Source of the DNA: a virus
Lineage: Duplodnaviria; Caudoviricetes
Virus record (IMG/VR): IMGVR_UViG_3300028903_000004
Location: 32,001 to 96,000 of that record
Length of the DNA stretch: 64,000 bases
Reading direction: 5' to 3' (one strand)
Both the position numbers and the translations under genes were made by a program. The notes under the pieces were generated by a model, which saw only the letters and a list, made by a program, of their open reading frames with translations, was not told where the DNA came from and ran no database searches. Numbering within the stretch: position 1 is the first letter of the stretch; each line of letters starts with the position of its first letter. Below are positions 20,200 to 30,588 of the stretch, piece after piece.

Positions 20200-20235
20200 A
20201 GCTTGAATGGTTTGCCATTCGAGCTATTCCTTTTT
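20200..20235 (+). terminator. intrinsic terminator
   Basis: agcttgaatgg-tttg-ccattcgagct then T-rich tail. Confidence 0.65.
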
Positions 20236-20290
20236 ATATATTTTTGTTTTTTTAATTGACATTATAGTTAATTTATAGTATATTTGTTGA

Positions 20291-20977
20291 ATGGAAATAT
20301 TAGAAAAATTAACTAAAGAAAACAAGCCATTAGAAGTTATTACAAATATAGATGAATTCACTAAATTTGCTGCCAAAGCTTTTGATTGTGAATTTAACGG
20401 TACTGCGCGATTTTTTCCTTGGGGAACCCCAAAGAAAATTCCACAAATATTTAATATTGGCGTTATTTATGGAGCAAGTGGGTCTGGCAAATCTACGTTA
20501 TTAAAAACATTCGGAAATGAAGAAAAATTTGAATGGGACCCGAAGAAATCAATAGTTTCACATTTTAGTACACCAGCTGATGCTATAGATAAATTAGGGG
20601 CTGTAGGTTTAAATTCTATACCGAGTTGGTATAAACCATATCATGTACTATCAAATGGAGAAAAATTTAGAGCTGAACTGGCGCGTAAAATAAAAGATGG
20701 GGCTGTAATTGATGAATTCACATCAGTTGTTGACCGAAATGTAGCTAAAGCTGTTTCAGTATCTTTATCAAAATATATTAAAAGAAATAACATTAAGAAT
20801 ATTATATTAGCAACTTGCCATGAAGATATTTTAGAATGGCTTGAACCTGATTGGGTTATTAACACGAATTCTGGGGAAGTATATTCTGGAAATTTTTCAA
20901 ACGCCCAGATATCTATCTCAAAATATATCCAGCATCAAGGGATATCTGGGCAATGTTTAAGGACCATCATTATTTAA
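20291..20977 (+). CDS. ABC-type ATPase (N-terminal part of a frameshift fusion)
   Basis: GASGSGKST Walker A, LSNGE signature, IDEFTSVVDR Walker B, CH.DI.EWL.PDW. Confidence 0.85.
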   Translation: MEILEKLTKENKPLEVITNIDEFTKFAAKAFDCEFNGTARFFPWGTPKKIPQIFNIGVIYGASGSGKSTLLKTFGNEEKFEWDPKKSIVSHFSTPADAIDKLGAVGLNSIPSWYKPYHVLSNGEKFRAELARKIKDGAVIDEFTSVVDRNVAKAVSVSLSKYIKRNNIKNIILATCHEDILEWLEPDWVINTNSGEVYSGNFSNAQISISKYIQHQGISGQCLRTIII

Positions 20978-21372
20978 GAGGTGATTTACATAAATCTTCA
21001 AGATGTTTTATTGGTATTTGGAATGAACAAATTGTAGCCTTTGGAGCATCAATTGCAATGCCTAATGGTTATGTAAAAAATGCTTGGCGTGGGCATAGAA
21101 CAGTTGTATTACCAGATTATCAAGGCATGGGAATTGGTGTAAAATTCTCGGATGCTATTGCTCAAATTCATTTAGATGAAGGTAAAAGGTATTTTTCGAG
21201 AACAGCCCATCCAAGAATGATTCATTATAGAGAAAATTCTCCTTTATGGAAAGCAACTTCAAAAAATAAGAAATTAAGAACCGATATTAAGCATTTGAAT
21301 GTTTTTAAAAATTATTATGCCGATAATAAAAGAGTTTGTGGGTCACATGAGTATATTGGCTATCAAAATTAA
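20896..21372 (+). CDS. GNAT/Mom-like acetyltransferase (-1 frame continuation of the ATPase)
   Basis: KRPDIYLKIY...WAMFKDHHYL, HRTVVLPDYQGMGIG acetyl-CoA motif. Confidence 0.8.
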   Translation, partial: FKRPDIYLKIYPASRDIWAMFKDHHYLRGDLHKSSRCFIGIWNEQIVAFGASIAMPNGYVKNAWRGHRTVVLPDYQGMGIGVKFSDAIAQIHLDEGKRYFSRTAHPRMIHYRENSPLWKATSKNKKLRTDIKHLNVFKNYYADNKRVCGSHEYIGYQN

Positions 21373-22723: not shown

Positions 22724-25225
22724 TCATTTTTTTAGCTTTTTACCAATTAAAATCATCTTATCTGTATCTTTATTATAACTAATATTAATACAATCACCTT
22801 CTTTGATATTTCCGTTAAGAATTTCTTCACATATATTATCCTCAATATGTTTTTGAATTGCTCTAGCTAACGGTCTGGCACCATACTCATCATTATATCC
22901 AACATCACAGAGATAATCTATTGCAGTTTTATCAACAATCATATCATACCCCATTTCATTAATTCTAGTATTGAGTTTTTTAAGTTCGAGTTCAATAATT
23001 TTAGTTATATCTTCCTTAGTTAAAGTTTTAAATATAATAATATCATCAAGTCGATTCAAAAATTCAGGTCTGAATGTTTTCTTTAAAGTTTTTTCGATGA
23101 TGTCATTAATTCTTTCTTGTGTTTTATCAATATTTTTTATACCAAAACCAATTCCTCTTCCAAAATCCAATGATTCTTTAACACCTACGTTTGATGTCAT
23201 AATAATTAATGTATTCTTGAAATTAACTTTACGACCGAGCCCATCAGTCAAATGACCTTCATCAAGTAACTGAAGAAGAACGTTAAATACATCAGGATGC
23301 GCCTTTTCTATTTCATCAAAAAGTATTACTGAATATGGTTTTCTTCTAATTCTTTCGGTGAGTTGACCACCTTGTTCATACCCGACATAACCTGGAGGAG
23401 CCCCAATAAGTTTTGATACAGTATGTTTTTCCATATATTCAGACATATCAATTCTTACCATGGCATCAGCATCGCCAAAAATATATTCAGCTAGTACTTT
23501 CGCCATATAGGTTTTACCTACACCAGTTGAACCTAAAAATATGAATGAACCTATAGGTTTATTTTTATCTTTAATCCCAAGCCTGTTTCGTTTAATTGCT
23601 TTTGAAATTTTAGTTACAACTTCATCTTGACCGATAACAATTCCATTAAGTTCTTTTTCCATATCAAGTAAATGTTTGTTTTCTTTTATGGAAATCTTAC
23701 TTATTGGAATACCAGTCATTGTTGAAATCACATCAGCAATAACTCCAACATCAATAACAGTACGTTTTTTATCTAAACTATTTAACCATTCTTTTTTTGC
23801 TTCAGCCAATTCATTTTCTAATTTTTTTTCTTTATCGCGAAGTTTAGCTGCTTTTTCATATAATTGTTTTTGAACTACTTCAAGTTTTTCTGCAATAATA
23901 GCTTCTTTTTGACGTTCTAATTCTTTAATATTTTCTGGAACATCAAACGAAACATTTGTTGATGCGCCAGCTTCATCCATCACATCGATAGCTTTGTCTG
24001 GCATTGACCTATCAGTGATATAACGGTCGGCGAGTTTTACACATTCATGAATTGCCTCATCAGTATATCGAACTTTATGATGGTCTTCATAATGCGATTT
24101 AATATTATGTAAGATGATTTCAGTTTCATCTAATGTTGGTTCTTCAACTAAAACTTGCTGAAATCTTCTAACAAGTGCTCCGTCTTTTTCAATGTTTTCG
24201 CGATATTCGTCAAGAGTAGTTGCACCGATGCATTGAAGTTCACCACGTGCCAAAGCTGGTTTAAATATATTTGAAGCATCCAATGAACCAGATGAATTAC
24301 CAGCACCAACAATAGTATGTAACTCATCAATAAAAATAATAATTTCTGGGTGACTTTGAAGTTCATTAAGCATTGCTTTCATACGTTCTTCAAACTGTCC
24401 TCTGTATTTAGTTCCTGCGACAACAGATGCCAAGTCTAGTGCTAATATTCTTTTGTTAAGCAAGATTCTTGGTGCTTTACCTTCAAGTATTAATTGAGCA
24501 AGACCTTCGATGATTGCAGTTTTACCTACACCTGGTTCACCTATCAAAACTGGGTTATTTTTCTTTCTTCTTGAAAGAATTTGAGAAACTCGTTTAATTT
24601 CTTTTTCTCGTCCAACTATCGGGTCTAGAGCCTTTTCTTTTGCAAGTTTAGTTATATCTCTGCAAAAGTTATCTAATACAGGCGTATCTTTATTATTTGA
24701 TTTTGACTCCTTTTGATTATCATTCTTATAGCTATTATTTTCATCATAATCATTTAGATAAGCATCTTTAACTCTAAAATTTCCTAATTCTGCATAAAAA
24801 TTAATATAGTTAATATTGTTTTCATTTAATATTGTAGTTATATGATTTTTAGGTAACAATAATACTCCAAGGATAAAATGATAATCTCTAATATTATTAT
24901 CTCCAAGTCTTTCTGCTTCATTGTCAGCAAAATCAAATGCCATTTTTGTATCTTCACTTGGAGGAATTTTGCCTTTATATTTAATTTCAACATTATTAAT
25001 ATTTAAATGTTTACTATTTAGGTCTTGAGTTATTGTTTCAATAAGCTCATCAATATCAACACCTAATGACTTAAATATTTGAATAACGATATTATTACCA
25101 TTTTCAAGAATAGCCAAAATAATATGCTCTGGTTTCAAATAACTCGAATTAAAATTATTTGCGATAATAAACGCCTCATTAACAATACTTTTAAAGTTCG
25201 GTAATATATCTTTTTTCATTTTCAT
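22724..25225 (-). CDS. clpC: ATP-dependent Clp protease ATPase subunit ClpC
   Basis: Clp-N repeats, [11 protein letters not shown] coiled coil, [24 protein letters not shown]. Confidence 0.93.
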
Positions 25226-25355
25226 AAAGTAATATTTATTATTTTCAGACAAAAATACATCTTTTTTTTGATAAAAACAAAATTATTGTTGATTTTTTAC
25301 AAAAAAAAACGTAAATTTAAGTATCTATAAGTTATTTTAAAAATTAAAAAAGTAA

Positions 25356-28924: not shown

Positions 28925-30588
28925 ATGAAAAAAGATATGATTAATCCTATAAGTCTTAAAGGGCAAGATAAATTAAATAGAATACATGAATTAATGGGGA
29001 AAATTAATCCCGTTATTAACGAAAATGTTTCTAATTCTGTATTAGAAATTTATCATAAAGGTGCAGATGGTAAAAATTATGGTATTGTTAGAGAAAATTA
29101 TAAATATTACATTAAAATTGCAGAAGATAAAAATAATTTAACTGTAAAAGATTTTCAATATATTGGTGGGCTTAAAAATAAAAATGATTATGTCTTTGAA
29201 TCATATGCCAAAGCTGTTAAACATTTAAAACTTAAATTAATGAGTTTAGATGAAGCTTATGGTATTGAACATGATTACGATAATAATGTATTGATGAAAG
29301 AAGGCGCATTTTCTTATGGTTTTAAAACTGAAGAAGAAACCAACGAAATGTTAGAAAATGAATATGTTGAAGAAGACGATTCAGATAAAATAGTTGACAA
29401 AGCTGACTATACAAAACATAAAAAAGAATCTGATACAGATGATTTTGATGATACAATAAAGCTTAATGATGCTCAAAAGTCAAAAATAAAAGATAAACTT
29501 CAAAAAAAATTTGATTTAACTGAAGAAGAAGCTAATTATCTTGTTGATGAAATTTTATCTTGCGAAACTTGTTATAATTCAGTTAAAGAAGGCTATGATG
29601 ATGAAGAATATGGTGATGAGGATTATGAACGTGCATCTAGAGAACAACAATATTATGGAAGAAGTCCTGAAGCTGGTGCTTTAGACGAAAAAAAAAAACT
29701 GTAAGCGAAACTGAAATAGACGAAGTTAAATATAAACTTAAAATAAAAGACCCAACATCAGAACCACCTCAAGAGCCAGCATTTTCTGATTCTAAAGGTG
29801 GTTCTGATTTTAACAATACTGATAATAATAGCAAATCATTTGATAATAAATCAGACAATGAAATGGCTGATGATTCGGATAAGCCATTTAATGATAAACC
29901 ATTCGATGCTGGAGTTGAAGTTTCAGAAGAAGATGACCCTAAAAAGTTCATTCAGCAATTAACAGGAAAATTAGGTACTTCCTTAAGAAAATATAATAAA
30001 GAACAAGGTAATCCAGATTTTGAATTAGAAAAATTTGTAATTAATTCTATAATTTCTGCAACACATAGCGGTATTATGGATGAAGAAGACCAGAAAAAAA
30101 TTATTAAGAAAGTTAAAACTGCTGGTAAAGATGATAATAATGTAAGTGTCGATACAAACAATAATAAAGATGATAATGAAAATGACGATAAATCAAAACC
30201 AACAGATAACAAAAAAAATAAAAAAGAACCTGTAAAATCATCTGATGAAGAAAATGATGAAAATACTGAAAATAGTGAAGATTGGTCGCCGACTGAAGAA
30301 TCATATAAAAAAAATAATGAAAAGTTGAAAAATTCTAAAAAAAGTGGTATATTTGAAGATGAATTAAATAATATTATTATGAATAGAATTAATGAAACGT
30401 TTAATATTGATAATATGATTGAAGAAATATTAGGCAATATAACCACAAATCCTCAAAAACCAGATGAAGAAACTATAAAAAAACCTAGGACTGATGAACC
30501 AGTAAAAAATCCAAGACCAAGACGTGAAAGAATTTGGAGACCAGAACCAGGTGAATCACCAAACCCAAAAGCTAGAAAAAATGGATAA
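28925..30588 (+). CDS. acidic head-region protein; 259-aa ORF plus -1 frame extension via A11 run (about 554 aa)
   Basis: ORF 28925..29704 ends DEKKKL*; -1 frame open 29671-30588. Confidence 0.65.

Follow-up and report, generated by a model that had tools for sequence, protein, structure and literature searches.

By analogy, the closest working counterpart of the gene examined here is dnaX, in which a single P-loop ATPase gene is expressed as both a short and a long protein, the tau/gamma pair, in a set ratio (reviewed in PMC5009743). In E. coli, dnaX undergoes a −1 frameshift at A_AAA_AAG, with a 5′ Shine-Dalgarno (SD)-like element and a 3′ hairpin. Thermus dnaX relies on transcriptional slippage on an A run, and other bacteria recode for the long form. 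Further −1 shifts are known for gpG/gpGT of phage lambda (at G_GGA_AAG) and for the orfA-orfB transposases of the IS3 family (for a review, see PMC5009743). Tail-chaperone sites generally function without a strong hairpin. A shift in the opposite direction occurs in prfB, the gene for release factor 2, on the +1 cassette AGG GGG UAU CUU UGA C.

Proteins in which a GNAT acetyltransferase is coupled to an ABC ATPase are predicted phage enzymes for acylation of DNA bases (PMC7824862, citing Iyer et al. 2013). The corresponding protein family, phrog_11143, carries the JGI label 'ABC-type ATPase with predicted acetyltransferase domain'; in the literature searched, its published descriptions are confined to a plain fusion, without reference to recoding. 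No report on recoding of an ABC-ATPase/GNAT gene was found in the open-access literature searched, in PMC7824862, or in the examined sections of the Atkins 2016 review; Iyer et al. 2013 (PMC3763556) was outside the scope of this survey.

The phage ATPase-GNAT gene described below resembles dnaX in that its relatives differ in the route taken, namely, a heptamer with a hairpin, a homopolymer run, or an arrangement in which the default and the recoded products are swapped. The two differ in that dnaX encodes a clamp-loader subunit, whereas here an ABC ATPase is combined with GNAT and the frameshift would add a whole catalytic domain. Also, the swapped form here appears to rely on a prfB-like +1 cassette, which is absent from dnaX. 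With lambda gpG/gpGT and the IS3 family the gene shares a −1 shift that extends a short protein into a fusion, and one of its relatives (L113) has the lambda motif, plus a hairpin. In contrast to these systems, the ATPase-GNAT gene belongs neither to the structural nor to the transposition genes, and many members of its family are unbroken.

Gene layout and the putative frameshift signal

The window, i.e., the whole stretch of 64,000 nucleotides of DNA analysed here, is part of a single 123,436-bp contig with genes for terminase, thymidylate synthase, and other phage proteins. The phage is present in sludge, wastewater, digester, and hot-spring metagenomes from ten studies; none of the runs recorded as RNA contains the stretch. 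The features of the locus are listed in Table 1.

Table 1. Features of the ATPase-GNAT locus, with positions in the window
Feature	Positions	Strand	Remarks
Terminator-like hairpin and T run, end of the upstream gene	20200-20225	+	11-pair stem with 5 G-C pairs, then ATTCCTTTTT
Sigma-70-like promoter match, TTGACA-17-TATATT	20256-20284	+	11/12 consensus positions; consensus match only, function not shown
0-frame ORF, ABC-type ATPase	20291-20977	+	228 aa; residues 1-202, ATPase; residues 203-228, tail
GGGGAA, possible SD-like 5′ stimulator	20873-20878	+	11 nt upstream of the heptamer; inference only
Slippery heptamer A_AAT_TTT	20890-20896	+	In phase with ATPase codons GGA AAT TTT (20888-20896)
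−1 frame after the putative slip: linker strand FKRPDIYLKIY and GNAT acetyltransferase domain	20896-21372	+	158 aa; stop at 21370-21372
Spacer TCAAAC	20897-20902	+	6 nt
5′ arm of the stem, GCCCAGAUAUCU	20903-20914	+	
Loop	20915-20939	+	25 nt
3′ arm of the stem, GGAUAUCUGGGC	20940-20951	+	
Internal Met codon ATG of the GNAT frame	20953-20955	+	1 nt after the 3′ arm; sole possible independent start
TAA stop of the ATPase ORF		+	Overlaps the HHYL codons of the GNAT frame

The ATPase ORF was assigned to PF00005 in the Pfam scan (E 2.6e-5) and contains the Walker A, signature, Walker B, and H-loop motifs (GASGSGKST, LSNGEKF, VIDEFTS, and CHED, respectively). In the structure model of the 228-aa protein the ATPase fold is confident; the 26-residue tail has a pLDDT of <50 and is predicted to be disordered. 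The GNAT ORF matched PF00583 (25.1 bits against a curated cut-off of 20.7) and possesses the acetyl-CoA loop Q/R-x-x-G-x-G/A in the form YQGMGIG. The fold search made with a fused homologue retrieved the ABC nucleotide-binding domain (MalK, Wzt, MJ0796), followed by GNAT (2ae6, 1y9k). The tRNA(Met) cytidine acetyltransferase TmcA (PDB 2zpa; rank 47 in this search) also combines an ATPase with GNAT and acetylates a nucleic-acid base, but its ATPase is helicase-like, its domain order and size are different, and sequence similarity is absent. TmcA is a distant analogue that illustrates how the enzyme might work, and not a relative.

The two ORFs together cover the phrog_11143 profile (357 positions) end to end. 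Residues 49-201 of the ATPase correspond to profile positions 39-195, and positions 198-351 are matched by the −1 ORF beginning with codon 12 (first nucleotide, 20896). Homology therefore switches frame exactly at A_AAT_TTT. The −1 frame is closed by TAA at 20860-20862, is then open from 20863 to 21372, and reads ...WKFFKRPDIYLKIYPASRDIWAMFKDHHYL into GNAT. A slip on the heptamer would yield a protein of 202 + 158 = 360 aa with the computed junction GEVYSGNF/FKRPDIYLK (the slash marks the slip). This predicted product aligns without gaps with that of the in-frame relative L038 (73% identity), GEVYSGNF/FKRPDIYLKIYP being matched by GELLVGRCLQRPQINIKIYP.

The stem downstream of the heptamer consists of 11 Watson-Crick pairs and one closing U-G pair. 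The hairpin has a minimum free energy (MFE) of −19.6 kcal/mol, which corresponds to z = −2.6 relative to dinucleotide shuffles (1 of 200 as stable) and to z = −3.6 relative to 1000 synonymous shuffles that preserved the −1-frame protein and the codon usage of the gene (3 of 1000 as stable). Part of the complementarity between the arms is forced by the protein, since Pro CCA faces Trp TGG and Asp-Ile is encoded in both arms; a 6-bp match of the arms persists in one in-frame relative. The Rfam search of the hairpin region revealed no matching family. Cognate re-pairing in the A site is the main rule for efficient bacterial −1 motifs (PMC4066793), and re-pairing at the heptamer of the window (UUU to UUU) is cognate. 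A term search of PMC4066793 for A_AAU_UUU gave no match; the published efficiency tables were outside its scope. The GGGGAA hexamer, represented in relatives by GGTGAA, GGAGAA, or GGAGAG, may act as a 5′ stimulator. It also encodes a conserved Gly-Glu pair, and this role cannot be separated from the constraint on the protein.

A preliminary description of the locus, made from the sequence alone, had proposed most of these elements. Its heptamer in the ATPase frame, its 6-nt spacer, the opening of the −1 frame just before the heptamer after a stop at 20860, and its products of 228 aa and approximately 360 aa were all confirmed. The proposed stem of 11 bp with a 27-nt loop held only in part: the 11 pairs are present and are joined by the U-G pair to make 12 bp. 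The loop is 25 and not 27 nt long because this closing pair extends the stem. The statement that ABC-ATPase/GNAT fusions are predicted DNA-modifying enzymes of phages is right (PMC7824862), while the term 'Mom-like' is valid at the level of the GNAT superfamily only. Pfam and PHROG scans revealed no specific similarity to Mom; only general GNAT models and phrog_11143 were matched. Acylation of a DNA base by this enzyme is inferred and remains a prediction, with no substrate shown.

The terminator-like hairpin listed in Table 1 ends the upstream gene; the ATPase-GNAT gene thus starts its own transcription unit. The best sigma-70-like match ends 6 nt upstream of the ATG, and the mRNA would be leaderless or nearly so. 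An 842-aa ClpB/ClpA-like AAA+ protein (phrog_4871, E 2.6e-257) is encoded on the minus strand at 22724-25252, 1.3 kb downstream. At 29688-29698, at the end of a 259-aa ORF and between two other ORFs of the window, an A11 run (GACGAAAAAAAAAAACTGTAA) is located.

In our view, programmed recoding of the ATPase-GNAT gene is very likely, albeit in the absence of protein, RNA, or reporter data. The mechanism operating in the window is likely to be −1 ribosomal frameshifting; its occurrence and efficiency are inferred, and the tRNA set of the host is unknown. The two ORFs would then represent one recoded gene of a 123-kb phage. Ordinary decoding would produce a soluble 228-aa ABC-type ATPase with a short tail. 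The 12-bp hairpin, located 6 nt past A_AAU_UUU, would make some ribosomes pause, and the Asn and Phe tRNAs would slip back by one base (AAU to AAA and UUU to UUU, respectively). Translation in the −1 frame would then result in a 360-aa ATPase-GNAT fusion with a layout identical to that of the single-ORF homologues.

Homologous loci and the start of the GNAT domain

Homologous loci were drawn from phage records, IMG/VR, and metagenomes, and the frames of the two halves were compared by tblastn. The 138 distinct loci comprised 93 single in-frame ORFs, 38 loci with GNAT in the −1 frame, 2 with GNAT in the +1 frame, and 5 interrupted by an in-frame stop. In relatives, the tblastn segments of the two halves overlap by exactly 1 nt. 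Random breakage was rejected as an explanation for the +1-frame homologues: L054 and L120, like L132 and L133, are two-gene forms in which GNAT has its own start. These four are the only true two-gene forms, with GNAT starting at TTG in L054 and L120 (+1 frame) and at ATG in L132 and L133 (in-frame stop), in each case directly before the conserved element RPxIxLxIY. The in-frame stops of L009 and L010 are upstream of the real gene start and represent an artefact of the alignment window. In L002 (Tenacibaculum phage pT24, LC168164.1), the in-frame TGA (1648-1650) is located inside the GNAT domain (…FTWNGVPV-stop-INVISPLP…) and not at the linker, so that two 'ABC transporter' genes are annotated in the record. 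This stop may reflect a pseudogene, an error in sequencing, or readthrough.

The −1 form is annotated as two genes in the GenBank records of Streptococcus phage Javan141, Oenococcus phage Vinitor-27, and Thomasclavelia phage TR-TP1, where the annotated GNAT starts cut into conserved sequence.

One rival explanation is that the locus of the window is a decaying pseudogene or an assembly artefact, that is, a once-fused gene that has lost one base. In its favour, fused homologues form the majority (93 of 138), and deletion of one base in the T run would yield the same layout. We consider this rival practically excluded. Contigs from four independent runs (two from sludge, one each from a hot spring and a digester) span positions 20500-21300 without an insertion or deletion; each has 2-5 substitutions, which leave the heptamer and the stem untouched. 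Of the 5452 relatives of the ATPase ORF in the protein collection, the best 120 (63-82% identity) range in length from 225 to 258 aa, and most have 228-230 aa. The same break thus occurs in 120 of 120 best relatives, down to 63% identity. These lengths and the four indel-free assemblies rule out a sequencing error or a pseudogene. In addition, both halves remain under purifying selection, the break invariably sits on a slippery motif, and the hairpin covaries.

Another rival holds that ATPase and GNAT are two separate genes, with no fusion made and GNAT translated from ATG 20953, perhaps coupled to translation of the ATPase, which would open the stem. It is supported by the presence of this ATG in 24 of 25 near relatives, by a weak AAGGG 11 nt upstream of it, and by the existence of real two-gene forms (L054, L120, L132, and L133). 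Several observations make it unlikely. The genuine two-gene forms start GNAT before the RPxIxLxIY strand, not after it. In the model of the fused homologue L094 (pLDDT 91.3, pTM 0.86), this element is a beta strand (residues 212-216) of the GNAT domain, i.e., a structured part of it. The strand is conserved in the −1 frame without an upstream start codon: in 24 of 25 clade members, neither ATG nor GTG nor TTG occurs between the last −1 stop and the strand. The first −1-frame ATG corresponds to 20953 of the window and is replaced by ATC in L103; other −1 lineages have Leu or Lys at this position, and Met is also common there in in-frame fusions. Met 20953 is therefore regarded as a structural residue. 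The two-gene rival would also leave unexplained the slippery motifs at one codon and the covarying stem.

Variability by codon position changes from a 0-frame pattern upstream to a −1-frame pattern downstream. The region of overlap keeps the −1 pattern, with suppressed synonymous change (0.73 versus 1.23 bits). ATG 20953 is thus an improbable main start; the Met codon is conserved in the near clade, and some independent initiation is not excluded.

Slippery motifs and hairpins across lineages

The clade to which the window belongs includes 28 loci of 58-100% identity that align without gaps, with the shift at the same codon in every member. The slip codon is contained in GGA AAT TTT in the window, L084, L007, and L088, in GAT TTT TTT (T7) in L037, and in GGT TTT TTT TTR (a T9 run) in about 24 loci. 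In more distant −1 lineages the break falls in the same linker, where CAA AAA AAA AAG (A10) was found in L017 and L056 and G_GGA_AAG in L113. The motifs are less clear in L127, L004 (T5), and L003 (A_AAG_GGC). In the Thomasclavelia phage TR-TP1 group (L001, L136, L143, and L148), the junction lacks a canonical heptamer and contains a conserved TGGGGGA, where slippage in the P site alone, on G_GGG, is conceivable. In a tree of 133 proteins, the −1 state requires at least 8 changes, at least 4 of which are forced by well-supported branches.

Two members nested in the T9 group, L094 (1495-2580) and L102 (1495-2583), have a T10 run, are in frame, and read GFFF(V/K)RP, the product expected from a −1 shift or from addition of one base. 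Frequent switching between T9 and T10 or mixed populations may account for them.

In all six sequences with a short heptamer the stem begins exactly 6 nt downstream of the heptamer, and the MFE ranges from −16 to −25.5 kcal/mol. Relative to synonymous shuffles, the z values are −3.6 (window), −2.4 (L084), −5.1 (L007), −2.9 (L088), −2.1 (L037), and −2.1 (L113). No excess of hairpin stability over synonymous shuffles was detected in the T9 and A10 forms (z of −0.7 to +1.3) or in forty in-frame relatives (mean z of 0.01; 1 of 40 below −2). Pairing is kept in 91.7% of cells in the six short-heptamer sequences, compared to 22-44% in controls with the partner slid. Compensatory double changes occur at 4 of 12 stem pairs, as exemplified by the window and L007 (C-G to G-C and U-A to C-G), and the covariation score of 0.383, against 0.196, was reached by none of 500 shuffles. 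L084 differs from the window in the loop and has an identical stem. Across all 26 aligned clade members the register of the stem is only partly kept, with 67.6% of cells paired.

The presence of homopolymers raises the possibility of a transcriptional route, in which RNA polymerase stutters on the A3T5 tract of the window and the added base gives a minority of in-frame fusion transcripts. A homopolymer run without a hairpin is the typical layout for transcriptional slippage. In support of this rival, close relatives carry T9 (about 24 loci) or A10 at the same codon and lack a hairpin, two T10 members are in frame, and the A11 run elsewhere in the window lies between two ORFs. The known cases of transcriptional slippage, however, require about 7-9 or more identical bases in a row; the longest run is only T5 in the window and only T4 in L007 and L088. 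Moreover, the forms with short runs are those with a strong covarying hairpin at the spacing at which such structures act on ribosomes. For the window, therefore, we regard this rival as very unlikely. The split between short heptamers and long runs is what would be expected if short heptamers need a structure that stalls the ribosome and long runs operate by polymerase stuttering or are slippery on their own.

The −1 frameshift proposed in the preliminary description is, overall, supported, and every comparative check it had suggested came out in favour. Homologues either conserve the slippery site, which in the clade lies at the same codon, or are in-frame fusions, and the short-heptamer forms retain the hairpin and show compensatory changes in it. 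An extra base that would make a single ORF, named there as a refutation, was looked for in four independent assemblies and not found. ATG 20953, initiation at which was also named as a refutation, is not a general start codon; it is located downstream of a conserved beta strand of GNAT. The suggested purpose of recoding, i.e., setting the ratio of the products or limiting toxicity, is still an inference, with no protein, RNA, or reporter data behind it.

In-frame relatives and a possible two-product reading of the family

The survey of in-frame relatives revealed a cassette composed of NGG-RGG (or AAG-GAG), 3 nt, and CTT in 52 of 82 distinct in-frame junctions. It is positioned at the codon homologous to the slip codon of the window (20894-20898 in the window; loci L008-L165), and elsewhere in these genes, among 28,998 codons, the pattern was encountered only twice. 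Examples are AGG GGG TAT CTT CGG (L118) and GGG AGG TGT CTT CAA (L038). Leu at the cassette codon is always encoded by CTT, which accounts for 17% of Leu codons elsewhere, and Arg inside the hexamer by AGG or CGG but never by AGA (33% elsewhere). The base following CTT is C in 45 of 52 cases.

These in-frame relatives, not the window itself, resemble prfB in the SD-like hexamer, the 3-nt spacer, and CTT at the homologous codon. They differ from prfB in that CTT is followed by a sense codon (often CGG or CGA) and not by a stop, and in that the autoregulatory logic of prfB is absent; the function of the cassette is untested. The match to the prfB +1 layout suggests that fusions make the short form by a forward slip.

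The frame encoding the ATPase tail is stop-free for 26 codons, from the recoding codon to HHYL, and usually stops on HHYL. It is open in 36 of 37 −1 forms and in 92 of 93 in-frame fusions, while the expected fractions are 0.31 and 0.48 in synonymous shuffles and 0.18 and 0.24 in other 26-codon windows of the same genes, respectively. Multiplied over 15 in-frame clusters with <50% identity, the chance probabilities give 5e-6. The tail is predicted to be disordered (pLDDT <50), yet its frame is kept stop-free across nearly the whole family; the reason for this is unexplained.

Taken together, the −1 forms and the in-frame relatives with a +1 cassette and an open +1 frame give the impression of a whole family built for two products. 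In this bolder reading, one fixed recoding codon would serve for two proteins throughout the ABC-ATPase/GNAT family, with the direction of recoding flipping repeatedly. About a quarter of the lineages would read into GNAT by −1 slippage or by polymerase stuttering on T9/A10, and most of the seemingly intact fusions would exit GNAT via the +1 cassette (a GGAGG-like hexamer, 3 nt, CUU, C). The alternative frame is stop-free in nearly every member, from which this reading infers a function for both the short isoform and its tail. We see as much reason to doubt this reading as to accept it.

For the −1 forms, programmed recoding remains our preferred reading, and the gene would be a large and well-conserved addition to the short list of non-structural phage genes with programmed frameshifting. 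In the samples analysed here, the family is represented by 38 distinct −1 loci and 120 protein clusters. Annotation pipelines treat the two ORFs of the −1 genes as unrelated and often misplace the start of GNAT. The signal at one and the same codon depends on the lineage: a heptamer with a hairpin in some, a homopolymer run in others, and a prfB-like +1 cassette in still others. The family is therefore well suited to studies on the replacement of one recoding signal by another. A fixed two-product output also constrains ideas on how this predicted DNA-modifying enzyme works. By analogy to tau/gamma of dnaX, the two products may act together, for example as a mixed ABC dimer with fewer catalytic heads, in which, possibly, not every subunit would carry one.
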